A stretch of 64,000 nucleotides of DNA. Source: Mycobacteriales bacterium. GTDB lineage: Bacteria > Actinomycetota > Actinomycetes > JAFAQI01. Positions within the stretch are counted from its first letter, which is position 1; every line of letters begins with the position of its first letter. Position numbers and translations under genes: made by a program. Positions 48,693-64,000 of this stretch are shown here, piece after piece. The notes under the pieces were generated by a model. It saw nothing but the letters and a program-made list of their open reading frames with translations, was not told the DNA's origin and did no database searches. The DNA lies in contig DASZUS010000008.1 of NCBI GenBank assembly GCA_035547515.1, positions 28,257 to 92,256 on the forward strand, given 5' to 3'.

Positions 48693-51371
48693 GTGACCCC
48701 ACCAACACAACAAAGTAAGACTAGTTTTGTGGTGGTCGGCGGCGGTGCGGCAGGCACCCTCGTCGCGACGCGCCTGCTCGACGAGTCGGCGCGGCGCCAT
48801 CTCTCGATGACAGTCACGGTCGTCGAGCCCCGCGCGGCGCTCGGCCGCGGGATCGCGTACTCCGCGGCGGACCGCCGCCACGTCCTCAACGTGCCCGCGC
48901 TGAAGATGACCGCGTATCCGGAGGACGGCGAGCACTTCCTGCGGTGGCTCGCGCGTCACGGCCGCGAGGTCGCGGAGGCCGACTTCGTCCCGCGGGCGTG
49001 GTACGGCCAGTACCTCGACGACGTGCTCCGGGCCGCGGCGCGCCGCGCGAACCTTGCCGAGCTGCGCGTTGTGCGCGCCCGGGCGACAGGTCTCGAGCGG
49101 GTGGGCACGCGGGCTCGCGTCATGCTCGACACCGGCGAGGACCTGCCGCCGGCCGACGGTGTCGTGCTCGCGCTGGGGCACCTCGGCGTCGAGACCGGCT
49201 GGGCGCCGCCGGCCCTTCGCGAGTCGAAGCGCTTCATCGCCGACCCCTGGGCAGCCGGCGCCCTCGACGGCGTACCGGAGGACGCCGACGTGATGTTCGT
49301 CGGCTCGGGGCTGACGATGGTCGACGCGGCCCTCCAGCTCGACCGGCCGGGCCGGACGCTGCGGGTGGTCTCGCGCCACGGCCTGCTGCCGCGGCGGCAC
49401 GTGCGCGACCTGCTTCCCGCGATGGAGGCGCCGCAGTTCTCGTGCGAGGCGCCGACGCTGGCGGAGCTGCGCAGGGTGATGTCGGCGCACATCGACAAGG
49501 CGCAGCGGCGGTACGGCGACTGGCGTCCGGCGATCGACAGCATTCGCGCCCTGACCCCCAAGCTGTGGGCCGGCCTCGACCCGGCCGACCGTGCCGAGTT
49601 CGTGCGCACCGACGCTCGCGCGTGGGACGCGGTGCGGCATCGCATCCCGCCCGACAGCGCGGAGCTCATCCACCAGATGCGCGGGGCGGGCCGGCTCGTG
49701 CTCACTCCCGGCGAGGTGGCGGCGGTGGTCGAGAGCGACGCTGGCCTCGCCGTACGTCTCTCGGACGGCTCGTCGGCCATGGTCGGGGCAGTGGTCAACT
49801 GCACGGGACCCTGCGATCGGCCGGAGCGCAGCCGCGACCCGTTCGTCCAGTCGCTGCTGGCGGCGGACCTCGCGCGAAGCGGGCCGCTCGGGATCGGGTT
49901 CGACACGCGCCCGGACGGCCGCCTCATCGGGCGTGACGGCAGTGACGACTTGCCGCTGTTCACCCTCGCGGCGCTTCGCAAGGGCTCGCTGTGGGAGTCG
50001 ACGGCGATGCCCGAGATCCGGGTGCAGGCCGCCCACGTCGCGCGATGTCTCGTCGGGCCGGCCCGCCACGAGCCGGTGCGCCCGACCGACCAGTACGGGC
50101 TGGCCGTATCGACCACCGCCGAGGCGGCGGAGCTGTGGCGGCAGGCGCTGGACCGGATCCGCCGGGTGCAGGCGGGGGCGCCGGAGCTGATCGCGGCAGC
50201 CCTCGAGATCGACCCAGCCTTTGCCCTCGGGCACGCCGCTCTCGCGTTGCTGGCGCGCGAGTGCGAGGCCGACGTCGACGCGGCGGCGTCGCTGTCGTGT
50301 GCGATCGACGCGATGCGGCTGCGGGCGGACGCCCGGGAGATCAGCTTCATCCGCATGGTCGAGGCGCGGCTGGTCGAAGAGCCCGCCACCGCGGACGAGC
50401 AGCTGCTGCGGCACATCAAGCAGCATCCGATCGACTGCCTCGCGGTGAGCGCGGCGCTGCCGACGATCGCCTTCAGCGGGGTGGCGCAGCCGATCGAGCA
50501 GGCATGGGCGCTGGTCGACTCGCTCGCACCCGAGTACGGCGACGACTGGTGGTTTCGCAGTCTCGCGGCCTTCACCCGCCAGGAGCAGGAGCGCTTTGCC
50601 GAGGCCGAGGAGCTGGCCGAGCAGGCGCTCGCCTTCGAGCCGGCTGCCGGGCACGCCGTGCATGCCCGCGCACACATCACCTATGAGACCGGCGACCACC
50701 TCGCGGGTCTGGCCTGGCTGGATCGATGGATCGACGAGCACGGCGGGGACACCAACCACCGCGCGCACTTCGTGTGGCACGCGGCGTTGCACGAGATCGC
50801 GATGGGTGACTTCGACGCGGCGCTGCGGCGCTACCACGAGCAGCTCGCGCCGCCGCGGGTCACCGGGGCGCGGGCGCTGGTCGACTCGGCGTCGCTGTTG
50901 TGGCGGCTGCGGATGCTCGGCGTGTCGATCGGGTGTGCCGAGATGCTGCCGACCCTGGCAGCGGTGGACCAGTGCGTCTTCGACCGCCCGGCGACGACCT
51001 TCACCGCGCTTCATGCGGCCATCGGACTGGCCGGTGCAGGCGACCTCGCCGCTCTCGCCGCTCTGGAGTCCTACGCCGCCGAGCATCCCAACCGCTCGTT
51101 CGCGGTAGCCGTCGTACCGCTGTGCCGCGGGCTCGCGGCGGTGGCCGATAGCCGGCCGGCCGACGCGGTCGGCCCGCTCACCGCCCTGCGCACCATGGGG
51201 CTGCGCCGCTTCGGGGGGAGCGCGGCCCAGCAGGAGGTCGTGGAGGAGACGCTGCTGCACGCACTCGTCGCATCGGGCCGTCGGGCTGAGGCCGCGACCT
51301 TGCTGGACGAGCGGCACCAGCGACGGCGGTCCCCGGGCGACCAGCGCCGCCTGGAGGCTCTCCTCAGCTGA
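48693..51371 (+). CDS. FAD/NAD(P)-binding domain protein fused to a TPR (TTC38-like) domain
   Basis: 892 aa from a GTG start. The N-terminal Rossmann motif is FVVVGGGAAGTLVATRLL, with a second dinucleotide motif at MFVGSGLTMVDAAL. The C-terminal ~400 aa are helical repeats (HFVWHAALHEIAMGDFDAALRRY), resembling TTC38-type TPR proteins. The longer antisense ORF is an Arg-rich artefact. Confidence 0.6.
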   Translation: MTPPTQQSKTSFVVVGGGAAGTLVATRLLDESARRHLSMTVTVVEPRAALGRGIAYSAADRRHVLNVPALKMTAYPEDGEHFLRWLARHGREVAEADFVPRAWYGQYLDDVLRAAARRANLAELRVVRARATGLERVGTRARVMLDTGEDLPPADGVVLALGHLGVETGWAPPALRESKRFIADPWAAGALDGVPEDADVMFVGSGLTMVDAALQLDRPGRTLRVVSRHGLLPRRHVRDLLPAMEAPQFSCEAPTLAELRRVMSAHIDKAQRRYGDWRPAIDSIRALTPKLWAGLDPADRAEFVRTDARAWDAVRHRIPPDSAELIHQMRGAGRLVLTPGEVAAVVESDAGLAVRLSDGSSAMVGAVVNCTGPCDRPERSRDPFVQSLLAADLARSGPLGIGFDTRPDGRLIGRDGSDDLPLFTLAALRKGSLWESTAMPEIRVQAAHVARCLVGPARHEPVRPTDQYGLAVSTTAEAAELWRQALDRIRRVQAGAPELIAAALEIDPAFALGHAALALLARECEADVDAAASLSCAIDAMRLRADAREISFIRMVEARLVEEPATADEQLLRHIKQHPIDCLAVSAALPTIAFSGVAQPIEQAWALVDSLAPEYGDDWWFRSLAAFTRQEQERFAEAEELAEQALAFEPAAGHAVHARAHITYETGDHLAGLAWLDRWIDEHGGDTNHRAHFVWHAALHEIAMGDFDAALRRYHEQLAPPRVTGARALVDSASLLWRLRMLGVSIGCAEMLPTLAAVDQCVFDRPATTFTALHAAIGLAGAGDLAALAALESYAAEHPNRSFAVAVVPLCRGLAAVADSRPADAVGPLTALRTMGLRRFGGSAAQQEVVEETLLHALVASGRRAEAATLLDERHQRRRSPGDQRRLEALLS

Positions 51372-51391
51372 ACTTGCGCGGGGGCAGCTAC

Positions 51392-51439
51392 CGCGAGCGC
51401 CGCCTGACGGTGCTAGAAGACAGCCAGGCGGCGCTCGCG
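51392..51439. terminator. perfect 15-bp inverted repeat (18-nt loop) between convergent genes; candidate bidirectional terminator
   Basis: CGCGAGCGCCGCCTG (51392-51406) pairs perfectly with CAGGCGGCGCTCGCG (51425-51439). It lies in the 76-bp gap between the stop codons at 51371 (+) and 51448 (-). There is no U-tract. Confidence 0.45.
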
Positions 51440-51447
51440 CGCTGCAA

Positions 51448-51828
51448 CTAGTCGTTGACGGTCGGAAGGCCTTCGGCGCGCCAGGCGCGGTAGCCGCCGA
51501 TCAGGTCCGTTGCACGCCGGATGCCCAGGTTGCGCAGGCTGTCGGCGGCGAGGCTCGAGGCGTAGCCCTCGTTGCAGCACAGCACCACCCACGCGTCGTA
51601 CGACGCGAACGGCAGTCGTGCCTCGGAGGCCGGGTCGAGCCGCCACTCGAGGACGTTGCGGTCAATCACCACCGCGCCGGGGATCTCGCCTTCGATGACC
51701 CGGTTCACCTCGGGGCGGATGTCGATGATGAGCGCGCCTTCTGCCTGCGCGGCGAATGCTTCCTTCGGGGTCAGCCGCGACAGCCGCGACCTGGCATTGG
51801 CCAGTGCCTGGCTGATCGTCATCGTCAT
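51448..51828 (-). CDS. single-domain rhodanese-like sulfurtransferase
   Basis: The ATG at 51828 gives 126 aa. The rhodanese pattern is LIIDIRPE...GEIPGAVVIDRN..EW...VVLCCNEGYASSLAA..L...G...DLIGGYRAW. ATGA overlap with the upstream cysteine dioxygenase gene. Confidence 0.75.
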   Translation of the reverse strand: MTMTISQALANARSRLSRLTPKEAFAAQAEGALIIDIRPEVNRVIEGEIPGAVVIDRNVLEWRLDPASEARLPFASYDAWVVLCCNEGYASSLAADSLRNLGIRRATDLIGGYRAWRAEGLPTVND

Positions 51829-52337
51829 GCCGGCACCGCGCTCGGTGCCCGCCGGCCGATGGCAGCCTCGCGGTCCTCTCGGGTCGAGACGGTGCGCACT
51901 CGCGCGAGCCCGCTCGGGTGCTGGGCGTAGAACGACATCTCCGACAGCGGTGGGGAGTAGGCATGCAGGCTCACCGCTGCCGCGGGTCCGGCGTTGTAGA
52001 CGTCGTGGACCGTCGTCGGGGAGATCGCCACGGACTTGCCCGCCGTGACAACCGTCGTACGGGTCTCCAGCGCCTCGGGCATTGCGCGGACCTCGGTCAG
52101 CGCGCCCTGGACGACGAGGAACGCGCCCGACGAACCGCCGTGGTCGTGCAGCTCGGTGCCTTGGCCGGTCAACCAGGTGAGCAACCAGATGTCCGCACAG
52201 TCGTTGCCTTGCAGCCGCCGCCACCAGCGGCCGGAGGCGTCGAATCGCGCCAGGCTGCGCCACTGCGAGGCGCGGTCGGCGAGCCGCTCGAGGACGGCTA
52301 CTAGCTGCGTTGCGTCGAGTGTCTGGAGGGAAGCCAT
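51825..52337 (-). CDS. cysteine dioxygenase type I family (cupin) protein
   Basis: The ATG at 52337 gives 170 aa (an alternative GTG is at 52358). The cupin metal motif is WLTGQGTELHDHGGSSGAFLVVQGALTE, with a later HDVYN...VSLHAYSPPL. Confidence 0.7.
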   Translation of the reverse strand: MASLQTLDATQLVAVLERLADRASQWRSLARFDASGRWWRRLQGNDCADIWLLTWLTGQGTELHDHGGSSGAFLVVQGALTEVRAMPEALETRTTVVTAGKSVAISPTTVHDVYNAGPAAAVSLHAYSPPLSEMSFYAQHPSGLARVRTVSTREDREAAIGRRAPSAVPA

Positions 52338-52355
52338 AGAGCAACTGTAGCAGAC

Positions 52356-52367
52356 CACTCAAGTAAC
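52356..52367. promoter_or_regulatory. conserved AT-rich motif CACTCAAGTAAC, copy 1, in the cdo leader
   Basis: It lies in the 34-bp gap between the stop of the PDO-rhodanese gene (52372) and the cdo ATG (52337). It matches 53831-53842 at 11 of 12 positions, with a 9-nt identical core CACTCAAGT. Confidence 0.4.
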
Positions 52368-52371
52368 TACA

Positions 52372-53748
52372 TTAAGACACGCTTAACGGCTCGACCAGGT
52401 CGTGCTCGCGCGCAGAGGCGAAGCTGTCGTCGACGAGCACGACCTGGTGGCCCGCACGGTCGAGCAGCGACGCGGCGATCGTGGCGCGGAAGCCGCTCGC
52501 GCAGTGCACCCACCAGCTGTGCTTCGGCAGCTCGGGTAGCCGCGCCATGAGCTCCGGCAGCGGCAGGTGCGTCGCGCCGGGGATGGCGCCGTCGCGGTCG
52601 CGCTCGTCATGGCGTCGCACGTCGAGCACCGTGGCGCCGCCCCGGCTCGCGTGGTCGAGCTCGGCGAAGGTCGCCCGGCGGAAGCTTCGGCGGGGCAGCG
52701 CCGGTGCGATCGAGTCGAGTGGGCCGTGCGCGACGGCTGTGGGCCGGTCGATGCCGATCCGGGCGAGCTGGCGTTGCGCCGCCGCGATCTGCTCGGCGCT
52801 CTCGCCGAGCAGGGTGAGCGGCTCGCCGTACGGGAAGATCCACCCGAGGTAGGTCGCGAACTGCGTGCCGAGCTCGACGGCGATCGACCCCGCCAGGTGG
52901 TCGGCGGCAAACTCGCGGCGGCTGCGGATGTCGACCACCCACTCGCCGGCGGCCAACCGCCGTGCGATCTCCTCGGCGTCCGCGGCGCGCGCCTCGCTGA
53001 GGTCGGCCGCGGTGACTCCCGCGGCGTTTCTCGGCGCCATGTGGGCGTAGTAGGCGGGGTACGGCGTGAAGCCCGCGACCACGGTGTGCACGAACTCGGC
53101 CTCGTCGGGCGCAGTGAGTGCGAGGTTGTTGCGGCGCTCGTCGCCGATGGTGCCACCGGCCGATGCGCTCGGGCTCGGGGGACCGGAGGAGCAGAAGCTG
53201 CCGAAGCCGTGGGTGGGGTAGAGCGCGGCGTCGTCAGGCAGCGAGTCGGCCAGCCGGCGTACCGAGCGGTACTGCGCGAGGGCGAGCGGGTGCGTGAGGT
53301 CGGGGCTGATCAAGTCGGTACGGCCCACTGCGCCGTAGAGCAAGGACCCGCCGCTGAACACCGCCGTCGCGCCGCCGGCATCCGTCACCACGTAGCTCAG
53401 GTGTCCGGGAGTGTGACCGGGCGTCGCGACGACGCGGACGCTGAGGTCGCCCACGAACAGCGTCGTGTCGTCGCCGACCGGAGTGCGCGGGAAGCCCACC
53501 TTCTCGCTGCCAGCCACCAGGTAGTCGACCTTCGCCGAGCGGGCGAGCGCCAGGCCGCCGGTCAGGTAGTCGTTGTGGATGTGCGTCTCGGCCACCGCGG
53601 CGAGCTCGAGGCCTAGCCGGTCGAGCACCTCGCTGATTCGGTCGATGTCGCGCTGCGGGTCGACCACCAATGCATACGACCCGTCGTGCACCACATAGCT
53701 ACGGTCGCCGAGCTCCTCGGTCGGAACTGTCTCAACCTGCACGTGCAT
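52372..53748 (-). CDS. persulfide dioxygenase (MBL fold) fused to two rhodanese domains (CstB-like)
   Basis: 458 aa from the ATG at 53748 (or 472 aa from the GTG at 53790). MBL motifs: ETHIHNDYLTGG and ATPGHTPGH. A middle rhodanese-like domain is followed by a C-terminal rhodanese with the active-site loop VHCASGFRAT (CX5R-type). Confidence 0.75.
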   Translation of the reverse strand: MHVQVETVPTEELGDRSYVVHDGSYALVVDPQRDIDRISEVLDRLGLELAAVAETHIHNDYLTGGLALARSAKVDYLVAGSEKVGFPRTPVGDDTTLFVGDLSVRVVATPGHTPGHLSYVVTDAGGATAVFSGGSLLYGAVGRTDLISPDLTHPLALAQYRSVRRLADSLPDDAALYPTHGFGSFCSSGPPSPSASAGGTIGDERRNNLALTAPDEAEFVHTVVAGFTPYPAYYAHMAPRNAAGVTAADLSEARAADAEEIARRLAAGEWVVDIRSRREFAADHLAGSIAVELGTQFATYLGWIFPYGEPLTLLGESAEQIAAAQRQLARIGIDRPTAVAHGPLDSIAPALPRRSFRRATFAELDHASRGGATVLDVRRHDERDRDGAIPGATHLPLPELMARLPELPKHSWWVHCASGFRATIAASLLDRAGHQVVLVDDSFASAREHDLVEPLSVS

Positions 53749-53830
53749 CCCGTCTCTCGAAGTTGTGACGTGTGTCACTGCGCCGCTCACGTCGCGTTCC
53801 CGTACCGGTCGTGCTATATCTATCTCAACT

Positions 53831-53884: not shown

Positions 53885-56257
53885 ATGCGGTTCCGGTTGA
53901 GCAGTTCAAGACTTGTGGCGGTGGGTGCAGCGCTCGCCGTCGCGTCCGGAGGAGGGGTGGCAGCCGCGTCGACGGGAACGTCGGCCGCGAGCGGCTCGAG
54001 CTCCTTGCTTCCGACGATCACCCGCACCGTCGACACGATCAAAGCCGCGGGCAAAACGGTGGTCGGCAGCGTCAACTACACGGTCAACGAGCCGACCGAG
54101 TCGCGCGCGAGCGCGACCGACACCTACGGCAACCCGCTCGAGGGCCTCTCGCTCAAGGGCCTGCCGAGCCTGCCGGGCGTGGGGGAGGGCCTCCCGTTCG
54201 AGACCGGCAACAACCCGGGGCTGGACAACGAGCCGTCGAGTGAGAACACCGGCAAGTGCCCGCCGCCCGGCAACGGTCACGAGTACCTCATCGTGTGGGC
54301 CGGCAAGATGAACGCCGCCGACCTCACCGGTACCGACATCCTCGACCTGATCAACGGCGGTGCGGTCAACCCCGAGGGTCTGGCCTCCCAGATCCCGATC
54401 GAGTTCCTCGAGACCGGGTCGGACATGATGGCCACGATCGACGCCGAGCCGGGTTGCGCGACGTACGGCAAGGTCGTCAACGTCTCAGTCGTCAGCGGCC
54501 CGGATGGCGTGGAGAACGAGCCGCATCACATGCAGTACACGTGGTACCCCGGCCAGACGGTCTGGGCGGGCGGCCTGTTCACCTCGCGGCTGTTCACCTA
54601 CGACTTGTCCGACCTGCCGCAGGTCAAGCTGACCCGGATCGACGAGCCGTGGTCGACGCCCAGCGGCAGCATCTGGGACGCGTTCGCGACGCTCCCCAAC
54701 GGAGACGCGTACGGCACGCTCATGGGCGGTCCGCTCTACGCCTACGGCACCACGCCGGGCGCGGTCGTCGAGATCGCCGGCAACAACCACCCCGGCGCGC
54801 AGCCCGGCCAGATCCTCGGCGAGTGGCCGGCGTCCGGGTCGGAGGACCTGCTGAACTCGGCGAACACCAACGGCAGCGTGGGCGGCGCTCTCCTGTCGTC
54901 GGTCGGCTCGACGCTGGGGAGCCTGCCTGGTCTGGTGAGCAAGGGCAACGACGACGCGGGCATCAGCACGGCGAACGGTCACATCAAGTGCCCGGACTTC
55001 GGCAGCTGCGCCAACCCGCACGGCATCCAGATCCGAGCCGACCTCCACACGATGGTGACCTCGGACTACGCCGAGCCCGCCCAGATCATCGAGGACCCGG
55101 TCAAGCCGACCAACCCGTACTACTTCCGTCGTACGGTGCGCATCTGGAGCTTCGACGACAAGGGCTGCTCCGGCAACCCGACGCCGGGCGCCACGATCAA
55201 CAACCCGAAGATCTGCGCCATCGACGTGATGCCGCTCGGGCCGCGTGACGACTCGAACCCGGCCCACGGCGAGAACCTCGGGATCATGGAGAACGGCGCG
55301 ACCTGGGACTACCCGCTGCCTGACGGCAACGTGCCCAAGGGCTGGTTCTCCGAGTCGATGTGCGGTGGCGCGGTCTTCTACACGCCGGACATCACCGACA
55401 CCAAGGACCACCCGTGGCACGAGGTCTTCGACTCGACCGCGGCGGTGGCCGCACTGAAGTCCAATGGCGCAGGCAGGGTGCCCGGCGGTGGCGACCTGAA
55501 GAACGAACCGGCCGGCTGCGACGGCGCGGCGTGGGACGTCGTGAGCCCTGACAACCGGTTCCTCGGTCACGCGGTCAGCGGGCGCTACATCCTGCAGGAC
55601 GACTACGACGACGCCGGTACGCCGAAGATGGTCTACACCCTGAGCATCACCAAGCTGCTCGAGGCCGGCGACCACTACAAGTGCAACCTCGCGAACAACA
55701 TCCGCGCGCTCGCCGACCCGACGCTGGGCGGCAAGGACTGCCCGACGGTGGCCGGTGTGGTCCCGATCAACGACCCGACCTCGGGTGGCCCGCACTGGGC
55801 GGAGTTCGACAACTTCCGCCTGGCCGCGGTCAAGATCAAGGACCCGAAGACCGGCAAGACGGTGATCGACTACCACGCCCCGACCCGGATCGCGGAGGCG
55901 AACTACTTCGTCGCCCGGACCGGCGTCGACGGCAACCACACCGTCTGCATGATCAACATGAACCCGACCACGGGCTCGCTCTCGCTCGACACCAGCTTCA
56001 TCGACGAGACCGAAGGCACGCCCTGCGTCCAGTTCAACCGACGGGACTGGCCGGACCCGAACATCAAGGGGTTCTACAAGCCGCACTCGATGCTGTTCGT
56101 CGAGAACGACCCGCCGGCAACCGGTCTGACCCCGTACGGGCACAACTACGGCCCGAACTGCGAGTTCGGCAAGGTCGTGGACGGTCAGTGCCGCGGCTAC
56201 TGGGGCGAGCCGATCGACATGGGCGCTGATACCGCCGGCTTGAAGTACGAAGAGTGA
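53885..56257 (+). CDS. large secreted SBP56 (selenium-binding protein / methanethiol oxidase)-like protein, 790 aa
   Basis: Signal peptide [21 protein letters not shown]. The motif order is collinear with SELENBP1 as recalled from memory. [17 protein letters not shown] matches CGPGY..[29 protein letters not shown]...ENEPHHMQY matches [20 protein letters not shown]...[31 protein letters not shown] matches [45 protein letters not shown] matches [23 protein letters not shown]. The family assignment is not verified by any search. Confidence 0.55.
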   Translation: [790 protein letters not shown]

Positions 56258-59013
56258 GCGGCCGCCGCTGGCCGCGCCGGGGCAGGAACCTGCTCCGGCG
56301 CGGCGGCGGCGTCGCGCTGCTGACCGTCCTCATCGGACTCGTGACGGCAGCTCCCGCCGCCGCCCACCCGTACCTGCTCAGCAGCAACCCGGCGAACGGC
56401 GCCATCCTCGCGTCCGCCCCCGCCACGATCGACATCAGCTACACCGAGGGCCTCGACCGCCCGTACTGCTCGGTGGTGCTGGTCGCCCCAGACGGCACGC
56501 ACGTCGACACGCACCAGGTTGCCGCGTCCGCTCCGACCGAGCTGGCAGTGGCGCCGGACGCGTCCCTGTCCGAGCAGGGCACCTACGCCGTCAACTGGAC
56601 CGCGGTCGGCGACGACGGCCACACGGTCATCGGCAGCTTCGGCTTCAGCGTCGGCCACCCGAGCGCCAACGCGGCAGTCCAATCCGGCGGCACCGCCGTG
56701 TCGGGAACCGGGTCGAGCTCCGGCGGGGCTCGCCGGGTGCTCGGCGCGGTCCTGCCGTTCGCCGTCATCGTCCTCGCGGGACTGGTCCTGCTGTCGCGGA
56801 CCTTGGCCGCCGCCGGGGCCCGCGCGACTCGGCTGATCCGGGTGGCGTTCGCTGCCTCCGGCGCGCTCGAGCTTGCGCTGGCCGGGATCGCGATCTCCGA
56901 CCACGGGCTGTCGGCGTTCGGCTCGTCGGCGACCGGTCGCCGGCTGATCGCCGAGATCGCGTTGACAGCGGCGGCGGGCCTTGCCGGGCTCGCCCGGACC
57001 TCTCGCCGGCGGACCTGGCTCGGCGGGCTCGCCGCACTGGCACTGCTCGTCGTCCTTGCCGACTCCGGCCACGCGGCATCGCAACCGTCGTCGCGACGCG
57101 ACCTCGTCCTCGCCGTGTACTCCCTGCACCTGCTCGCGGTCAGCATCTGGATCGCTGCGATCGCCGCCGTCCTGCTCCGGCTTCGCACGAGGACAGATGA
57201 CGACCTTGCACCCGACCTGCATCGCTCGCTGCGCACCCTTGTCGCCGTGTCGCTTGTTGCGGTGCTCGCGACAGGCGTTGCGACGACGGACTGGGGCCTG
57301 CGCACCCTGAGCGATCTTCCGCACACCACCTATGGCCGGCTGGCGCTGACGCTTGCCGGCCTCTTCGTGGTCATGGTGTGCCTGGGCATTGCGGCGTCGG
57401 CGTCGCGTCGGATGATCGTGGTGGAAGCCGTCGTCGCGGCTGGCGCGCTCGTGGTGGGCGGCGTGATCAGCCAGTCGTCCCTGCCGCTCGACGAGCCCTA
57501 CGCGTCGCAGACATTTGCCGCCTCGACCGGTGTTGCGATGTCCGTGGCACCGGTCGGTGACGACGGCCTGGACATCGCCACGCTGGCGCCGGGCATCGTG
57601 GGCCGCAACACCCTGGTCCTCGAGGTCGGGCACGCCGACGAGGAGGACTTCCTGAGCCCGCAGTCAAGCGTGAGGGCGGTCACCGCGACCGTGTCCTGCG
57701 GCGGCTGCGGAGCGCCGGACCAGCACCTGACGTTGCAGCCGACCGGGGCGGGAGCGGAGTGGACGGCAGACGTCACGTTGCCGCGAGCCGCTTCGTGGCT
57801 GGTCACGGCGGCGGTACGGCGCGCTGGTGCCGCGGCGGAGGTCTCGCGGTTCTCCGAGCGCGTCACGCCCGCGGACCTTCCCGACCAGGTCGTCATCGGC
57901 GTCCCTGCGGCGTTGTCCGGACCTAGCGGATCGACCTGCCGTGACCAGCTGCTCGGGCTCCAGGTCGCGCTGCAGGATCTCAACGCGCAGGCAGCCGACC
58001 ACGGCGACCTCATGCGCGTCGTCGCAGTGGACCTGCACGACGGCGTCACGCAAGCGATGGCACGGCTGCACTCCCTCGGTGCGCGGCTGATCGCCATGCC
58101 GTGCGGCACCGCGGACCAGGTCGACCGAGCCACCTCCCTGGCCCGCGCCGCCGGGCTGCCGGTGGTGGCGGGGGAGGGCTCGGTGACCGACCGGCAGGCC
58201 GGGGTCTGGTCGACCCAGCCGTCGTGGCAGGCCGAAGGCGCCGCGATCGCCAACCAGGCGCTGCGCCAGGACGCTAAGAGCGTCGTCGCCGTTGCGGGGA
58301 CGACCGCGGTGGACCAGGCCGAGCTCGCCGGGTTGCGGCAAGGTCTCGCCGGGCATGCGGTGGCGCTGCGCGTGACGGGCTTTCCGGCGAGGCCGCGGAG
58401 CTTCGTCGGCGGTCTCTACCGTGCCGACACCGACGTGGTCGTGCTGCTCGGCGACCGCACGGAGGCCGATCCCACAGTGCACTCGTTCTCCGCCGTGAAC
58501 GCGGACACCGGATGGGCGCCGACGCACGGCATCCTTGCGTCGGCCCAGCTGATGAGCACGGACTTCATCAACGGCGCCGGCAACATCACCCGGGTCGGGG
58601 GGATCGAGTTCGCGAGCGACATCAACCCGTTCGACCCGATCGCCCAGTACTACGCCAGCCGGCTGCGCGCGCTCGCCCCCGGCGTACGCCCGACCTTCGA
58701 TGGCGTGCACGGTTACGACGCCGGTCTGCTGGTGGCGGAGGCGTTGCGTGACGGCGGCGGCCGGCCGTCGCCGTCGTCGCTCGCGAAGCTGCTCGGCTCG
58801 CACTTCACCGACTTCACGGTCGGCAGCTACCAACTCGACTGGCAGCCCGACGGCGGTACGTCGACGTCGCTGGCGTTCTTCCGCTCCACGTACGTCAACC
58901 CGATGGCGATGCCGTCGTTCGCGCCGGGCGGCGCCGCGGCCCTTGCCCACGAAGGAACATTTCTCAATGCCGGCGGCTTCGAACAAGTCGCCCCGTTTAG
59001 GAGGTTGTCGTGA
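56254..59013 (+). CDS. CopC - CopD - (YtkA-like?) - type 1 periplasmic-binding-protein fusion, 919 aa
   Basis: GTGA overlap with the upstream gene. A signal/TM segment is followed by a CopC domain that begins with the predicted mature N-terminal His. The CopC sequence is AAAHPYLLSSNPANGAIL...TIDISYTE...GTYAVNWTAVGDDGHTVIGSFGFSV. About 8 TM helices follow, consistent with CopD. Next is a roughly 120-aa beta-rich region containing SCGGCG. The C-terminal ~330 aa resemble LivJ-type PBP1 (VVIGVPAALSGPSG...AMPCGTAD...VVAVAGTTAVDQAE...FDGVHGYDAGLLVAEAL). Confidence 0.65.
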   Translation: MSGRRWPRRGRNLLRRGGGVALLTVLIGLVTAAPAAAHPYLLSSNPANGAILASAPATIDISYTEGLDRPYCSVVLVAPDGTHVDTHQVAASAPTELAVAPDASLSEQGTYAVNWTAVGDDGHTVIGSFGFSVGHPSANAAVQSGGTAVSGTGSSSGGARRVLGAVLPFAVIVLAGLVLLSRTLAAAGARATRLIRVAFAASGALELALAGIAISDHGLSAFGSSATGRRLIAEIALTAAAGLAGLARTSRRRTWLGGLAALALLVVLADSGHAASQPSSRRDLVLAVYSLHLLAVSIWIAAIAAVLLRLRTRTDDDLAPDLHRSLRTLVAVSLVAVLATGVATTDWGLRTLSDLPHTTYGRLALTLAGLFVVMVCLGIAASASRRMIVVEAVVAAGALVVGGVISQSSLPLDEPYASQTFAASTGVAMSVAPVGDDGLDIATLAPGIVGRNTLVLEVGHADEEDFLSPQSSVRAVTATVSCGGCGAPDQHLTLQPTGAGAEWTADVTLPRAASWLVTAAVRRAGAAAEVSRFSERVTPADLPDQVVIGVPAALSGPSGSTCRDQLLGLQVALQDLNAQAADHGDLMRVVAVDLHDGVTQAMARLHSLGARLIAMPCGTADQVDRATSLARAAGLPVVAGEGSVTDRQAGVWSTQPSWQAEGAAIANQALRQDAKSVVAVAGTTAVDQAELAGLRQGLAGHAVALRVTGFPARPRSFVGGLYRADTDVVVLLGDRTEADPTVHSFSAVNADTGWAPTHGILASAQLMSTDFINGAGNITRVGGIEFASDINPFDPIAQYYASRLRALAPGVRPTFDGVHGYDAGLLVAEALRDGGGRPSPSSLAKLLGSHFTDFTVGSYQLDWQPDGGTSTSLAFFRSTYVNPMAMPSFAPGGAAALAHEGTFLNAGGFEQVAPFRRLS

Positions 59014-59651
59014 AGCTCGCTCAGCTCGGCGGTGTCGCCGCGGGAGCGACAGCGGTTCTGCTGGTCTCCGGGTGCGGCGGCGGTTCGACCCCAAGCCCGT
59101 CGTCGCACCCGGTCACGGCGAGGCCCGCCGCGGCAGTGGCGCCGGTGACGACCGGCTGCACCGGGGCGATGCTGCCGAAGGGCTTCACGGTCGACGCCGC
59201 GCACACCGGCAAGCTCACGGCACACAACTACAGCGCGACGGCCGATGTGCAGGCGGCGCTGGAGTACGACCAGATGACCGACGGCGGCCGCGACGTATGG
59301 CTGAAGCGAGCGAAGTCGGGACGGATCACTCAGGTGGCCAGCTGCATCGCGATGCCGTTCCCGTCGGCGCACATCGCCAACCGGTTCTTCATGTCCTACC
59401 GGCAGCTGCGCACGGACGCGGGATCCATCGTGCATCGCATCGCGCTGCCGAAGCCGGTCGCCGGTCTGGCGGGCGTCACGGCGTACCTCGAGACGCAGCA
59501 GTCGTTCCGCGGGTACCACATCGCCTCGACGAACGTGATCGAGGCGGCGGGCCGGGACGGCTCACGGCTCGACATCGTGTCGGTAGCGGGCTCCTCGCCG
59601 TCAGCCGCGCTCGCGCAACGGCTGCTGGCCGCGATGGCGGGTGCCGCATGA
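59010..59651 (+). CDS. lipoprotein, hypothetical (213 aa)
   Basis: Lipobox AVLLVSGCGG. GTGA overlap with the upstream gene. No domain recognised. Confidence 0.55.
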   Translation: MKLAQLGGVAAGATAVLLVSGCGGGSTPSPSSHPVTARPAAAVAPVTTGCTGAMLPKGFTVDAAHTGKLTAHNYSATADVQAALEYDQMTDGGRDVWLKRAKSGRITQVASCIAMPFPSAHIANRFFMSYRQLRTDAGSIVHRIALPKPVAGLAGVTAYLETQQSFRGYHIASTNVIEAAGRDGSRLDIVSVAGSSPSAALAQRLLAAMAGAA

Positions 59652-60298
59652 GCGCGCGTCGCAGCGCTGTGGCCCTCGCCCTGGCAGCGCTCGGCTTCGC
59701 CGTGGCGGGCTGCAGCAGTGGCTCCTCGCCGTCCGCGAGCCCCTCCAGTCCGGCTGTCGCGTCGAGCCCGTCGACCGTGCAGACGGTCCCGCCCGGACCC
59801 GTCGTACCGAGCTCGCCTTCGCTGTCGCTGGCCGACATCGCCGATCCTGGGCTCGCATCCCACATCGGCGACGGCAAGCTGACCGTCGCCCAGGTCAGGC
59901 AGCTCATGCAGTTCTTCGAGAACAAGGTCAGCGCCGCGTATGCCCACGGCGACGCGGACGCCCTCGACCACTACCTCGCGGGGCCGATGCTGTCGGGCAA
60001 CCGGGCAACGATCAACCTGCTCAACAGCCAGAACAAGCTCAACGTCTACCGGATCAGGGTTGGCAAGGTGACGATCGAGACGAACGAGAAGACCAGCGTG
60101 ATCTTCGACATGACCGGCGACATGGTTCTCGACTACTTCCTCGACTCGAAGACGCACAAGGTCCTCGAGCACGGATTGCCCGGGCCGAGCCAGGTGCAGT
60201 TCGCGGTGTTCTTCAACGAGAACCCGAAGAACCACACGTGGTACTGGACCGGTGAGAAGTCCGAGACCGCTAGCGACTCGTCGGGGGCAGGCCAGTGA
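59648..60298 (+). CDS. lipoprotein, hypothetical, possibly NTF2-like fold (216 aa)
   Basis: Lipobox LGFAVAGCSS, then a Ser/Pro linker, then a ~140-aa domain (VAQVRQLMQFFENKVSAAYAHGDADALDHYL...VIFDM.GDMVLDYF). ATGA overlap with the upstream gene. Confidence 0.55.
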   Translation: MSARRSAVALALAALGFAVAGCSSGSSPSASPSSPAVASSPSTVQTVPPGPVVPSSPSLSLADIADPGLASHIGDGKLTVAQVRQLMQFFENKVSAAYAHGDADALDHYLAGPMLSGNRATINLLNSQNKLNVYRIRVGKVTIETNEKTSVIFDMTGDMVLDYFLDSKTHKVLEHGLPGPSQVQFAVFFNENPKNHTWYWTGEKSETASDSSGAGQ

Positions 60299-61296
60299 GG
60301 CGGGCGAGGCTCGCGGCCGCTCTCGCCGGTCTGGTGGCGGCGGCGGTCGCGGCGCCGGCCGCCGCCGCGTCCGCTGGGGCGCGCTCTGCCGGGCACCCCG
60401 GGATCCTGCGGTTGTCCGGCGTGCTGCGGCTGGCGAGCGGGAGCTGCGCCGGCGGAACGCCCAGCGGGAGCTATCTGTCCGTCACGTTCGGAACGCGCGC
60501 GATCGACAACCCGGCGTCGGACTGCGAAGGCGGCGCGGTGACGCTGCTCTCGCCAGGACGTGAGGGCCTATCGACGACGTCGTTCTCCCCGGCTTCGGAG
60601 GACGGATTCGACGGTCGCGGCAATGCCGTGGCCCAGTCGATCACCCGCCCGGTCGCCTTCGGCAAGCACCTGCTCGGCCTCGTCAGCTCGGCCCAGGACT
60701 TGCAGGACGCGCCAACCGGGCCTGGCTTGTTCTCGCTGCCGCACATCTACGTGACAGGGGACAAGGTCCTGGCCGACGTCCGGTCGGTGCAGGTGCTCTA
60801 CGGCGGGCAGGCCGACACCACCTGTGCGTCCGGAGCCGGAGCCGGGTGCTGGCTGATCGGCGCGGAGCGAGCCACGGGGACCTACGACGCGGCGACCCGC
60901 CACATCACGCTGTCGTGGTTTTCCGGGCAGTCGTTCGTGCCGCAGTCGGCGGGGACCGCAGTGCATCTGTCCGGCACCTTCGTGGGAGCCGAGCCGAAGC
61001 CCGTGAGCACGCACGGCGTGGTCGAGCTCGGCACGTCGAGCTTCAGCGCCGCTTCGCCGCCACCCGCAGTCGTCGCCGCGATCCGGCACAGCTCGCCACC
61101 TCCCGCTCGGGCGGCGAAGCGCCGCGCGGTGGCAGCTTCCGGCCCGGCCTCCGAGCGGTCGGCGCTCACCGGCGGGGAGGACTCGCCGCTGTGGCGCGTG
61201 CTCGGTTCGCCATTGGCGCTCGCCGTCGCGACGTTGCTGATCGGGGTCGACGGGCTGCTGCTGGCCGGCGCAGTGGGGCGAAGGCGGACGCGGTGA
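60295..61296 (+). CDS. secreted protein of uncharacterised paralog family (member 1) with C-terminal TM anchor (333 aa)
   Basis: Signal peptide (LAGLVAAAVAAPAAAAS). The ~200-aa core is shared with the 61293-62006 and 62613-63326 products: GTPSGSYLSV, FDGRGN, ATGTYDAATRHITLSWFSG, HLSGTF. An Ala/Pro-rich linker follows, then LALAVATLLIGVDGLLLAGAVGRRRTR. GTGA overlap with the upstream gene. Confidence 0.6.
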   Translation: MRRARLAAALAGLVAAAVAAPAAAASAGARSAGHPGILRLSGVLRLASGSCAGGTPSGSYLSVTFGTRAIDNPASDCEGGAVTLLSPGREGLSTTSFSPASEDGFDGRGNAVAQSITRPVAFGKHLLGLVSSAQDLQDAPTGPGLFSLPHIYVTGDKVLADVRSVQVLYGGQADTTCASGAGAGCWLIGAERATGTYDAATRHITLSWFSGQSFVPQSAGTAVHLSGTFVGAEPKPVSTHGVVELGTSSFSAASPPPAVVAAIRHSSPPPARAAKRRAVAASGPASERSALTGGEDSPLWRVLGSPLALAVATLLIGVDGLLLAGAVGRRRTR

Positions 61297-62006
61297 TCGC
61301 CCACCGTGGCCGCCGGGCACTGGCCGCCCTGACGGCGGGCGCTGCGCTCGTCCTCGCGGCGGGCTGCAGCGGCACGCACCAGACCACGCCGGACGCGACG
61401 CACCTCGACGGGCTGTTCCGCATCGCTCCCGGCGCCTGCCCGGCGGCCTCCGGCCTGCCTACCGGCAGCTACCTCGTCGTGCTCTCGGCCGCGTCGGGCG
61501 GCACCGTCGGCAACCCGCACGGCGGGTGCAAGAACCCGGCGTACACCCTGCTCGACCCTGGCACCGACGGCGGGCTGGTGACCGGAGAGTTCCAGCAGGT
61601 CTCGGGACCGACGTTCGACCGCCACGGCAACTCGCGCGACGGGCGGATCATCGCGCCGGTGCGCTTCGGCAAGCTCGACGTCGGCTTCGGCACGAGCTCG
61701 CGGGACGAGCAGGACGCGCCTGCCGGAGCGCCCGCCTTCCCGGTCCCGTCCGCAATCGTCCGGGGCAGCGCGCTGTCGGTGGACCTGCGCTCGTTGGTGG
61801 TGAGCTACGCGGGCGACGCGGACACGAGCTGCAAGACGACGTACGGCGTCGGCTGCTGGGAGCTCGGCTCGGAGAACGCCACTGGCACCTACGACGCAGC
61901 GACCGGCCACTACAGCATCCAGTGGTTCTCCGGTGCGTCGTTCACGCCGAAGGGCGACTCGATCGAGGTCCATCTCGAAGGCACGTTCGTCCCGTCCTCC
62001 TCGTGA
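61293..62006 (+). CDS. lipoprotein of the same uncharacterised paralog family (member 2, 237 aa)
   Basis: Lipobox ALVLAAGCSG. Core motifs: GLPTGSYLVV, LDPGTDGGLVTGEFQ, FDRHGNS, ATGTYDAATGHYSIQWFSG, HLEGTFVPSS at the end. GTGA overlap with the upstream gene. Confidence 0.6.
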   Translation: MIAHRGRRALAALTAGAALVLAAGCSGTHQTTPDATHLDGLFRIAPGACPAASGLPTGSYLVVLSAASGGTVGNPHGGCKNPAYTLLDPGTDGGLVTGEFQQVSGPTFDRHGNSRDGRIIAPVRFGKLDVGFGTSSRDEQDAPAGAPAFPVPSAIVRGSALSVDLRSLVVSYAGDADTSCKTTYGVGCWELGSENATGTYDAATGHYSIQWFSGASFTPKGDSIEVHLEGTFVPSSS

Positions 62007-62599
62007 GCCGGCGAGCGTCGCTGGCCATCGGCACCGCGATCCTCGTGGTGCTCGGCTGCGGAGCGGGCGTTGCGGCTGGCCGGGGTGGTGGGGACGCGTC
62101 GGCCAGCGCGGACCTGATCGCGCCGTTGTCGACGGCCGACCGGTCGGCGCTTGCCGCTGATCACCAGCTGGTCGAGAGCCTGCCGGGCGCCCTTGCCGAG
62201 GTGCCCCGCGCCGCGGCGGATGCGGCACGCGTCGACGCCGCGACGGCGAGGTCGGAGCTCGCCGGCAATGCCGCGCTGCACGACCTTGCTGAGGCCGCCG
62301 AAGGGCGCTCGGCGGCCGTGTCGCTGCTGGTCTCGGACTACCGGGAGCTGCTCGCCGGCCGCCCGTTGCACGACGTCGCCGCGATGCCGCAGGCGTTGGC
62401 ATCGCTGCAGGCAATTGAGGGCGACATCGTGCCGGCGGTGCGGGTGGTCGCCTTCACACACGGCCGGCGGCTGACGGCCACAGCGGCGTACGAGGCGGTC
62501 GCGGGCGACCACCGGGCGCCGGAGCTTGCCCGGCTGCTGGCCGACTGGTCGCAGGCCTACGGCGTGCTTGTGCTGATGGAGCAGAAGGCGCTCGGCTGA
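62003..62599 (+). CDS. lipoprotein, Ala-rich helical, hypothetical (198 aa)
   Basis: Lipobox-like AILVVLGCGA. GTGA overlap with the upstream gene. It is the last gene of the + strand operon. Confidence 0.5.
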   Translation: MSRRASLAIGTAILVVLGCGAGVAAGRGGGDASASADLIAPLSTADRSALAADHQLVESLPGALAEVPRAAADAARVDAATARSELAGNAALHDLAEAAEGRSAAVSLLVSDYRELLAGRPLHDVAAMPQALASLQAIEGDIVPAVRVVAFTHGRRLTATAAYEAVAGDHRAPELARLLADWSQAYGVLVLMEQKALG

Positions 62600-62612
62600 G
62601 CCGGGATCGCTG

Positions 62613-63326
62613 CTAGCTCGACGGGGTGAAGTGCCCCTGCAGGTGCCAGTAGCCGGAGAACCCGTTGAACGGCCCGCCGACGATCGAGCTGGTCCAGGTG
62701 AGGACGAAGGCGCCCGTCGCCGCGTTGTAGGTGCCGGTCACGGGCGAGGTGATGCCGGGAGAGGTGCCCCCCGGCTTCGGCGAGCCCTGGTTGAAGTACT
62801 GGTTGTTCCAGGACGCCGACCACGCCTCGAGCTGGCCGGAGAGCTTGCCGTCGTTGTCGAAGATCTGCGGCGCGGGAACCTTGATGTGGCTCTGGGGGTC
62901 GACCTGCTCGGTCTGGATCCCGAACTCGATGGCGGTGAACGTCCCCGGCTTGGTGATCCGGTCGGCGAGGGAGTTGCCGTGGGCGTCGAACGCCTTCGCC
63001 GGCGGCGGCTGGAAGGTGCCGGTGACCAGCCCGCCGTCGGTGCCGGGCAGCTCGGGGGAGTAGGACTTGTCGGTGCAGACCGAGTCCGGGTTCTGGAAGT
63101 ACGGGCCGTTGGCGAGGCTGCCGTTGGCGTCGATCATCCGGAAGTAGCTGCCGGTCGGGGTCCCGCTGCCCTTGCAGGAGCCCGGCGTCAGGTGGAATGT
63201 GCCGACGAGTGCTTTCGCGCCCTGCGGGGCCGTGGTGCCGCCTCCTGACGAGCCGCCTCCGCACGCGGCGCCGGCGACCGCGAGCGACGCGGCCGTGAGG
63301 GCGAGACGAGCGGTACGGCGGTTCAT
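62613..63326 (-). CDS. lipoprotein of the same uncharacterised paralog family (member 3, 237 aa)
   Basis: The ATG at 63326 gives the lipobox SLAVAGAACGG. Core motifs: GTPTGSYFRM, LPGTDGGLVTGTFQ, FDAHGNS, VTGTYNAATGAFVLTWTSS, HLQGHFTPSS at the end. It is convergent with the operon, 13 bp from its end. Confidence 0.6.
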   Translation of the reverse strand: MNRRTARLALTAASLAVAGAACGGGSSGGGTTAPQGAKALVGTFHLTPGSCKGSGTPTGSYFRMIDANGSLANGPYFQNPDSVCTDKSYSPELPGTDGGLVTGTFQPPPAKAFDAHGNSLADRITKPGTFTAIEFGIQTEQVDPQSHIKVPAPQIFDNDGKLSGQLEAWSASWNNQYFNQGSPKPGGTSPGITSPVTGTYNAATGAFVLTWTSSIVGGPFNGFSGYWHLQGHFTPSS

Positions 63327-63334
63327 GGCACTCC

Positions 63335-64000
63335 TCATGCGGCGACGGGATCGGTGGCGACCGAGGCTTCGGCCGGGGTGTCGGGACGGCGTTGCGGCGG
63401 TGCGCCGGCTGCGATCGCGGCGAAGAAGACCAACGCGCCCGGTACGACGAAGAACCAGGGGAACAGCATGAACGAGGGCAGCGACGAGATCGCCTGGAAG
63501 CGCGGCAGGCTGTCGCTCATCGCGCCGATCATCGGTGTCATGTCGTTGAGGATGTGCACCCAGTCGGCGTCGAGGGCGGTGATTGACGGGTAGTCGGCCG
63601 CGAGAGCGGCCTGGCTGACCCCGGAGGAGCGCAACGCCGGGACGATGTCGTTGCGGATCGCACCTTGTCCGACCGCCATCGTCGAGAAGTACTGCTGGAT
63701 CTGCCCGATCTTCTGAGGCGTCTCGATCTGCTTGAAGGTGCTCATCATGTCGGCGCCCTTCGGCGCCCGGTCGAACATCTGCGTCGCAACCGGGGCGAGG
63801 ATCAGCGCGATCCCGATCACGGCCAGGCCGATCCGGGTGGGCTGGGGCGGCAGCGCCCCGAGCAGGCCCGCGATGGCGAGCGCTGCCATGAGAACGCCGG
63901 GGATGACGAAGAACCACGGGAACAGCCGGAAGCTGGGCAGTGCGGCCATCGCCTGGTAGTTGCCGAGGTTGTCCTGCACCTTGTCGAGCAGGTCGGTCAT
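63335..64000 (-). CDS. membrane protein with internally duplicated TM module (at least 221 aa; start coincides with the window edge)
   Basis: An ATG sits exactly at 63998-64000, so the gene may extend beyond the window. Two copies of a module are present: YQAMAALPSFRLFPWFFVIPGVLMAALAIAG and FQAISSLPSFMLFPWFFVVPGALVFFAAIAAG. A ~110-aa soluble region separates them. The stop lies 8 bp upstream of paralog 3's start. Confidence 0.5.
   Translation of the reverse strand: MTDLLDKVQDNLGNYQAMAALPSFRLFPWFFVIPGVLMAALAIAGLLGALPPQPTRIGLAVIGIALILAPVATQMFDRAPKGADMMSTFKQIETPQKIGQIQQYFSTMAVGQGAIRNDIVPALRSSGVSQAALAADYPSITALDADWVHILNDMTPMIGAMSDSLPRFQAISSLPSFMLFPWFFVVPGALVFFAAIAAGAPPQRRPDTPAEASVATDPVAA

Follow-up and report, generated by a model that had tools for sequence, protein, structure and literature searches.

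PAR, an actinobacterial family of tethered secreted domains encoded beside a duplicated four-pass membrane protein

Four PAR genes form two pairs at the locus

The stretch of DNA analysed here, referred to as the window, comprises 64,000 nucleotides of a Mycobacteriales bacterium (GenBank assembly GCA_035547515.1, contig DASZUS010000008.1, positions 28,257 to 92,256 of the forward strand). Towards its end lie three genes for secreted proteins, M1, M2 and M3, and a fourth, M4, starts 343 bp beyond the window end (Table 1). The four products have in common a domain of about 200 aa, labelled PAR in this report, and the four-pass membrane partner encoded next to M3 is labelled memDup. The window holds two pairs of PAR genes: M3 and M4 are of the generic type and lie around memDup, and M1 and M2 are divergent and are found only in an operon with genes for an SBP56-like protein and a CopC-CopD fusion.

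The original prediction, made from the letters of the window, described M1, M2 and M3 as a triplicated family with differing anchors. In pairwise BLASTP, M1 and M2 are 45% identical over 201 aa (E=4e-51), M2 and M3 37% identical (E=1e-27), and M1 and M3 30% identical (E=6e-15). All these E-values are far below 0.01, the level set for a lack of significant similarity, and the three products are paralogous as proposed. M3 and M4 are 50% identical. The translations agree with the predicted open reading frames (ORFs), including the equal length of M2 and M3, and both of these proteins end in PSS. The count of three does not hold: the local members number four, and the tree gives the pairs M1/M2 and M3/M4 separate histories. 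M2 and M3 carry lipobox-like signal peptides (..LAAGC and ..GAAC, respectively), in line with their predicted lipoprotein nature. M1 combines a plain signal peptide with a low-complexity stalk of 70 aa and, C-terminally, a hydrophobic segment with RRRTR behind it, which supports the proposed replacement of the lipid by a C-terminal transmembrane anchor.

The motif blocks described as invariant are shared only in part, since some of them, including PGTDGGLVTG.FQ and the PSS ending, fit M2 and M3 only; M1 has PGREGLSTTSFS and ..FVGAE. The conserved Cys positions likewise divide, with one pair common to M1, M2 and M3 and a second pair (SC..GCW) restricted to M1 and M2. The first pair most likely forms a structural disulfide, because it is absent in distant members. 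At the 36 reference positions with a conservation of at least 85% among family members other than M1/M2, the family residue is kept at 24 in M1, 27 in M2, 35 in M3 and 34 in M4.

M1, M2 and the 198-aa gene behind them each start in a 4-nt overlap with the preceding stop. M3 is convergent, as the original prediction had it, and its stop lies 13 bp from that of the last operon gene (62003-62599). The gap between them (62599/62613) contains no convincing terminator, the fold z-score being -0.4. M3 lies 8 bp downstream of memDup. On the other side, M4 and memDup are divergent; behind M4 come a gene for a 249-aa, transmembrane-anchored helical protein with an APAFGPF motif (the APAFGPF protein) and then DUF4395.

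Table 1 Coordinates of PAR genes, partner genes, operon genes and fusion ORFs (window positions unless a locus is named)
Feature	Coordinates	Strand	Description
SBP56/methanethiol-oxidase-like protein, operon gene 1	53885..56257	+	790 aa, secreted; weak NCBIfam MtoX match
CopC-CopD fusion with C-terminal periplasmic-binding-like domain	56254..59013	+	919 aa; Pfam CopC 5.4e-17; NCBIfam CopC, CopD
Lipoprotein, operon gene 3	59010..59651	+	213 aa, no family; conserved in L001, L109, L110, L111, L033
Lipoprotein, operon gene 4	59648..60298	+	216 aa; conserved in the same loci as gene 3
M1	60295..61296	+	333 aa: signal peptide, PAR domain of about 200 aa, low-complexity stalk, C-terminal transmembrane anchor
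M2	61293..62006	+	237 aa, probable lipoprotein (LAAGC), two Cys pairs
198-aa protein, last operon gene	62003..62599	+	N-terminal transmembrane or signal segment, helical ectodomain; no Pfam/NCBIfam family
M3	62613..63326	-	237 aa, probable lipoprotein, generic type, directly downstream of memDup
memDup	63335..64000, cut by the window; full gene to window-equivalent 64306	-	323 aa, four transmembrane helices, nine conserved Met
M4	G000:C8:92599-93687 = L009:1800-2888 = window-equivalent 64343-65431		362 aa, long Ala/Gly stalk, C-terminal transmembrane anchor
PAR-memDup-DUF4395 fusion ORFs	L076:4069-6507; L069:9935-12424; L083:9884-12322		812-829 aa

Natural fusions and gene neighbourhood of PAR

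The neighbourhood of PAR was counted by tblastn over 80 species-level PAR loci. The gene for memDup adjoins a PAR gene in 63 of them, an association that spans orders of Actinomycetota, and 8 of the 17 loci without it lie at contig ends. The typical gene order is PAR - memDup - PAR, and PAR is single-copy in 35 of the 80 loci. DUF4395 (37/80) and the APAFGPF protein (27/80) are frequent neighbours, followed by an ABC (ATP-binding cassette) ATPase (24/80), a persulfide dioxygenase-rhodanese (9/80) and an ABC-2 permease (7/80). The suggestion that homologs might always neighbour SBP56-like or CopCD genes is not borne out, as these are found near PAR in 7/80 and 6/80 loci only; the constant partner is memDup.

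The same genes also occur as single proteins. In three metagenome-assembled genomes (MAGs), PAR, a stalk, a transmembrane helix, memDup and DUF4395 form one uninterrupted ORF (Table 1). Representative proteins include memDup-PAR fusions (P0075, P0094, P0095, P0167), PAR-memDup fusions (P0081, P0085), a PAR-TIG-APAFGPF fusion (P0091) and at least ten PAR-PAR tandems (P0065-P0073 and P0096). The topology of the fusions is self-consistent: PAR is outside, its transmembrane helix crosses inward, and the N-terminus of memDup is inside, which places the memDup ectodomains outside and the C-terminal Cys-rich end of DUF4395 inside. The natural fusions, which comprise PAR-PAR, memDup-PAR, PAR-memDup and PAR-memDup-DUF4395 forms, are the strongest evidence that PAR, memDup and DUF4395 may work as one physical unit.

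In Gordonia sp. ABSL1-1 (L003:10001-15424), an ABC ATPase and an ABC-2-type permease lie between a lipoprotein PAR and the APAFGPF protein, and this variant of the module also occurs in L061, L064, L068, L084, L091 and L107. The closest ATPase models for the variant are of the lantibiotic-protection, NodI, GldA and DrrA types, all below their cutoffs. De novo clustering of neighbours yields two more recurrent families, a NAD_binding_9 flavoprotein in 14 loci, often followed by the persulfide dioxygenase-rhodanese in the same reading frame, and a SufS-type class-V aminotransferase in 7 loci. Examples of the flavoprotein with the persulfide dioxygenase-rhodanese are L057:13105-15921, L109:1-1451 and 48693-53790 of the window; in L057 the two lie in one stop-free reading frame.

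Anchoring modes are conserved and paired

The PAR domain is tethered in several ways across the family. Among the short-tailed proteins, 49 are lipoproteins and 46 are plain secreted, and at least 47 long-tailed proteins end in a transmembrane helix. The stalk of PAR proteins has a median length of about 60 aa and consists to 82% of Ala, Gly, Thr, Ser and Pro; the lipoprotein tether in M2 and M3 measures 13-18 residues. A few PARs end in LAxTG-like sorting signals or bear an extra Ig-type domain. The paralogs in L024 (domain start 10087, G033:C10) and L100 (483) end in an LAFTG- or LASTG-type motif, a hydrophobic segment and basic residues. These ends look like class E sortase (LAxTG) signals and would constitute a fourth anchoring mode.

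In the roughly 50 multi-copy loci, the commonest sets are a C-terminal transmembrane form with a lipoprotein (24 loci) and a C-terminal transmembrane form with a secreted one (7 loci). The usual state of PAR is a pair, in which one copy sits at the membrane surface, lipid-anchored or free, and the other is carried on a long flexible stalk with a C-terminal transmembrane helix. Anchor type changes only about 8-9 times on a domain tree of 143 leaves, as against 42 changes with shuffled labels. M3 falls into a clade of 47 rows, every one of them short-tethered, and M4 into a clade of 10 rows, each with a C-terminal transmembrane helix; both clades are well supported. The difference in anchoring modes is a conserved trait of the family and no accident.

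The M1/M2 pair belongs to a seven-gene operon

M1 and M2 form a long-branch clade of their own in the tree, with 99% support. Their operon runs in the order SBP56-like protein, CopC-CopD-binding domain protein, two lipoproteins, M1-type, M2-type and 198-aa protein. In all four readable contexts outside the window (L001, L109, L110 and L111), as in the window itself, the M2-type homolog sits in this seven-gene operon, which is present with or without an adjacent generic module. Orthologs of M1 occupy the same operon position in those four loci. Deletions in two of them, L109:9159-10004 and L111:4676-5521, remove about 40 residues, among them the DxQ loop and the SC..GCW Cys pair. M1 thus looks relaxed and scaffold-like, which suggests a degenerate partner; with 24 of the 36 conserved positions kept, it is the most degenerate of the members.

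The remaining operon products are less easily placed. Peripla_BP_6 is recorded on the L001 ortholog of the CopC-CopD fusion. The 216-aa lipoprotein has sub-threshold Pfam and NCBIfam matches only, the best being Tim44-like (NTF2-like fold) at E=0.046. The 198-aa gene always follows an M2-type gene and is conserved in L001, L109, L110 and L111. As a candidate half-memDup, its product gave a BLASTP E-value of 0.006 over 46 aa, but hhalign of the alignments returned a probability of 1%; it has no similarity to the APAFGPF protein either. No paper on an actinobacterial SBP56/CopC operon with these genes was found in a literature search.

The generic module also lies beside SBP56-like/CopCD genes in other orders, in L026, L033, L047, L056, L071 and L090. 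In Nocardioides sp. Root682 (L047:9081-16553), memDup, PAR, SBP56-like, CopCD and DUF4395 follow one another codirectionally and tightly packed, and the DUF4395 start overlaps the CopCD stop. The module's functional link to this enzyme system is therefore a recurrent one. In the lineage of the window, the link has been fixed by a dedicated PAR pair, M1/M2.

PAR domain and its predicted fold

The original prediction could not assign the family to a known domain, and this assessment stands. M1, M2, M3 and M4 match no Pfam-A 2025 or NCBIfam 20.0 family at E<=0.1, and sequence-profile searches of the PDB with alignments A1 and A2 return nothing, the sole row being a chance match at E=1.1. The AlphaFold2 model of M2, built from a 38-sequence alignment, is all-beta with about 13 strands and has a mean predicted local distance difference test score (pLDDT) of 88.8 and a predicted template modelling score (pTM) of 0.82. 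Foldseek finds no significant match to this model in the PDB (best E 0.38, template modelling score, TM-score, <=0.2) or in BFVD (best E 0.064). Within the PDB and BFVD, the model provisionally represents a new fold.

Two candidate assignments were rejected. A few large multi-domain relatives match DUF7015 over a 23-residue stretch, below threshold (22 bits, with the cutoff at 35); in A2 the match is found in 1/38 members at E=0.035, a weak lead that does not amount to membership. The JGI name of P0022 and P0024, ABC-type amino acid transport substrate-binding protein, comes without a precomputed Pfam domain, and the PAR model is all-beta; substrate-binding proteins are alpha/beta. The source names of all other matches in the PAR profile search are hypothetical protein.

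The conserved residues of PAR are mostly Gly, Pro and aromatic, together with a polar set concentrated in long loops. In M2 numbering, this set comprises N74, T85, Q101, T134, D138, Q140, Y200, D201, T204, W211 and H227. No conserved His/Met/Cys ligand set is present in the family, H227 being conserved at 85% only, and the M2-type clade has no conserved His at all.

Partner proteins memDup and DUF4395

The memDup protein consists of two homologous units, each composed of a transmembrane helix, a helical ectodomain and a second transmembrane helix, and thus represents an internal duplication. The model of the L001 ortholog (L001:12045-12989 (-), 56 sequences) is all-helical with four transmembrane helices (pLDDT 95.3, pTM 0.85). 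Its best 11 Foldseek matches in the PDB are all TTYH1-3, with probabilities up to 1.00, E-values from 1.9e-3 to 4.5e-2 and TM-scores of 0.19-0.30. No Pfam match to memDup and no PDB sequence match to TTYH was obtained. A TIGR04529 (hemophore-related) match of the truncated memDup at E=0.0038 was not repeated with the full-length L001 ortholog. Nine Met residues are strongly conserved in the ectodomains, namely M35, M45, M53, M112, M186, M196 and M265/M268/M272, the last three within D-M-x-P-M-I-G-A-M-S-D. No His or Cys is conserved in memDup.

The DUF4395 proteins linked to the module carry four invariant Cys in the arrangement CxxC-x16-CxxC (36 copies, including L009:3588-4148 and L001:14847-15371). 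Going by the topology of the fusions, this Cys4 site would be located at the cytoplasmic face. A literature search found no paper on the function of DUF4395.

Family size and distribution

A profile search of 1.84 billion representative proteins recovers 528 PAR clusters at E<=1e-3 and 210 at E<=1e-30, almost all from Actinomycetota. The family is rare and its occurrence scattered: an even sample of 401 genomes from the phylum contains only 5 carriers, with 2-5 copies in each. Species-representative genomes, scanned with the generic-clade alignment A3, give at least 356 loci. These are found chiefly in Acidimicrobiales/Acidimicrobiaceae MAGs from peat and soil and in Nocardioides, Marmoricola and Aeromicrobium; further main carriers are Solirubrobacteraceae, Gaiellales, Miltoncostaeaceae, Nitriliruptorales and uncultured Mycobacteriales, Nocardioidaceae and Thermoleophilia being among the main groups. 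Cultured carriers include Nocardioides sp. Root682 and Root240, Gordonia sp. ABSL1-1 and Conexibacter sp. CPCC 206217.

At the edge of the family, P0097, P0161 and P0172 are large proteins in which Pfam Cu-binding_MopE motifs and thrombospondin type 3 repeats are scattered among 2-3 truncated PAR domains (profile positions about 82-228).

Discussion

The PAR-memDup module appears, from homology searches, to be new at both the family and the system level, with PAR and memDup in no described family. Its core would consist of one or more PAR proteins and memDup, to which DUF4395, a Cys4 membrane protein, and the transmembrane-anchored APAFGPF helical protein are often added. We propose, at about even confidence, that M1-M4 are tethered extracytoplasmic subunits that dock on memDup and act as adaptors or as a two-step relay, with M1 and M2 dedicated to the SBP56-like and CopCD proteins. 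The two PARs of a pair would bind the two pseudo-symmetric ectodomains of memDup, one per repeat, and the pair would serve as an adaptor or short relay between the memDup dock and extracytoplasmic clients. For M1/M2, these clients would be the secreted SBP56-like enzyme and its CopCD partner. The parts of the proposal that are shown are the paralogy of the PARs, their synteny and fusions, the pairing of anchors and the confinement of one clade to the operon. The heteromeric envelope structure suggested in the original prediction fits the natural gene fusions and the conserved neighbourhood with an internally duplicated four-pass membrane protein. The best guess is that PARs, as tethered adaptors or relay subunits, are connected with the handling of copper or sulfur.

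Several points weigh against this proposal. Direct binding of PAR to memDup, its stoichiometry and any cargo are steps that we infer. Nine PAR loci with long flanks have no adjacent memDup, and the fused ORFs in MAGs might be assembly or frame errors, yet fusions turn up in three MAGs and again in several clusters of proteins that are independent of one another. The likeness of memDup to TTYH is weak (E from 1.9e-3, TM-score 0.2-0.3) and comes without a sequence signal, and the conserved Met of memDup can be purely structural. The PAR domain itself has no conserved set of copper-binding His, Met or Cys, and its Cys pairs are missing in distant members. Finally, 73 of the 80 loci are without CopCD or SBP56-like genes, and the general job of the module therefore need not involve copper.

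The nature of a cargo can be narrowed only tentatively. Methionines outside and cysteines inside are the usual layout of copper(I) trafficking, as in Ctr1, CusF/CusA, CopZ and CopA. Because the Met clusters of memDup outside and the Cys4 of DUF4395 inside follow this layout, copper or a copper-sulfur species is the first, if tentative, candidate. The sulfur-oxidation neighbours (persulfide dioxygenase-rhodanese, NAD_binding_9 flavoprotein, SufS-like and SBP56-like) point equally to reduced sulfur. In the ranking of cargoes, itself a guess, a reduced sulfur species is a step less probable. A lipid-like hydrophobic molecule, or a pure scaffold with no cargo, is each as doubtful as that, and something else altogether is improbable.

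The most serious rival explanation, itself rather unlikely, is that PARs carry lipids or other hydrophobic ligands in the manner of LprG and LppX, loading at a TTYH-like memDup and being fed in some lineages by an ABC-2 exporter, with the copper and sulfur neighbours incidental. The best 11 PDB matches of memDup, all TTYH proteins, speak for it. The transmembrane helices of TTYH proteins extend into a bundle of helices outside the cell, and a hydrophobic cavity opens towards the membrane (PMC8361169). TTYH2 hands lipid to the soluble carrier APOE (PMC12328215), and the literature describes TTYH proteins as lipid interaction and transfer docks (PMC8361169, PMC12328215). The two units of memDup would likewise form a membrane four-helix bundle that extends, through long helical hairpins, into an extracellular helical bundle, and memDup with PAR parallels TTYH2 with APOE (PMC12328215). 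The differences from TTYH are considerable: memDup is bacterial, has four transmembrane helices instead of five, shows no Pfam Tweety match and no sequence similarity, and bears conserved Met clusters without the disulfide-stabilised flap, so that the match remains weak and purely architectural. PAR resembles LprG and LppX of mycobacteria in being an envelope lipoprotein with a beta-rich domain and a membrane transporter partner, but it has no Pfam LppX_LprAFG match, and LprG appears in Foldseek at E=1.7 and a TM-score of 0.11. The non-significant Foldseek matches of PAR are enriched in hydrophobic-ligand beta proteins (LprG, Ups1/PRELI, PYL, dirigent), and the ABC ATPase and ABC-2 permease lie inside the cluster in Gordonia and several Acidimicrobiia. 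Against this, every PAR match is insignificant (E>=0.38 and TM-score <=0.2 in the PDB), and no lipid-biosynthesis genes recur in the neighbourhood, where the recurring genes are those of sulfur and copper.

It is less probable still that PAR itself is an extracytoplasmic copper chaperone, a functional analogue of YcnI, PCuAC or CopC that loads the SBP56-like enzyme or CopCD. YcnI (DUF1775), PCuAC and CopC are tethered or periplasmic copper chaperones encoded beside CopC/CopD-type genes, for example in the ycnKJI operon of B. subtilis. PAR shares with YcnI the extracytoplasmic beta domain, the signal peptide and, in M1 and M4, the C-terminal transmembrane anchor. M1 and M2 are fixed in an operon that also encodes the CopC-CopD fusion and a copper-enzyme relative. 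Repeats of the Pfam Cu-binding_MopE motif occur fused to some distant homologs, and the partner proteins bring Met clusters and a Cys4 site. The domain does not follow suit: it has neither a conserved His brace nor conserved H/M motifs, its only candidate His, H227, falls short of full conservation, and the M2-type clade lacks a conserved His even inside the copper operon. There is no Pfam or NCBIfam match to these chaperones and no cupredoxin-like or Ig-like Foldseek match, and hhalign of A2 against the CopC domain of the same operon gives a probability of 0.1%. Most PAR genes, moreover, are not beside copper genes, CopCD being absent from 73 of the 80 loci.

A catalytic role of PAR on envelope or sulfur compounds, with degenerate copies such as M1 as inactive partners, has slender prospects. 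The polar loop residues N74, D138-x-Q140, Y200-D201 and H227 are conserved family-wide, and the M1 orthologs of two lineages lose exactly that region, as pseudo-enzyme partners often do; but PAR matches no enzyme family or fold, and its tandem repeats and four anchoring modes are more typical of binding modules. That the paralogs act independently, as binders diversified for different substrates (the second option of the original prediction) and clustered by tandem duplication only, is the least probable reading, for although copy number runs from 1 to 5 per genome, many loci are single-copy and the copies diverge strongly, the conserved pairing of two anchor types, the constant memDup neighbour and the PAR-PAR, PAR-memDup and triple fusions speak against it.

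The reading of PARs as tethered adaptor or relay subunits finds its closest parallels by layout only, in Isd NEAT, HtaA/HtaB, YcnI and PCuAC; all homology-based tests of membership failed. Gram-positive ligand relays with paralogous beta domains are known from the Isd NEAT proteins of Staphylococcus and from the HtaA/HtaB CR-domain proteins with HmuTUV of Corynebacterium. As in these relays, several paralogs of one secreted beta-rich domain occur per locus, the genes lie beside membrane proteins and in some lineages beside an ABC transporter, and lipoprotein, secreted, C-terminal transmembrane, LAxTG-like and tandem-domain forms exist, a likeness by analogy only. In contrast to them, PAR has no Pfam NEAT or HtaA match, HtaA CR2 is meaningless in Foldseek (E=0.79, TM-score 0.16), no heme-uptake or heme-transporter genes are found in PAR loci, and the partner is a duplicated four-pass membrane protein and not a binding-protein-dependent importer.

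The most far-reaching form of the adaptor and relay proposal is doubtful as a whole. PAR, memDup and DUF4395 would then constitute a hitherto unknown trans-envelope trafficking machine of Actinomycetota, with a TTYH-like Met dock outside and Cys4 inside, in which a two-step tethered relay of PARs carries copper, copper-sulfur or hydrophobic sulfur species and serves secreted enzymes such as the SBP56-like protein. PAR would in that case also represent a new fold.

Soil and peat Actinomycetota, including Acidimicrobiia, Nocardioidaceae, Thermoleophilia and uncultured Mycobacteriales, are abundant, and their envelopes are poorly understood. Since cultured carriers of PAR exist, these hypotheses are directly testable. 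PAR seemingly has no solved structural relative, and memDup is a bacterial protein that looks like the TTYH lipid-transfer proteins of eukaryotes. The repeated link of the module to SBP56-like/methanethiol-oxidase-type enzymes, CopC-CopD, persulfide dioxygenase-rhodanese and DUF4395 offers a handle on the role of DUF4395 and on the means by which secreted copper and sulfur enzymes are retained and supplied in monoderm or mycolate bacteria.

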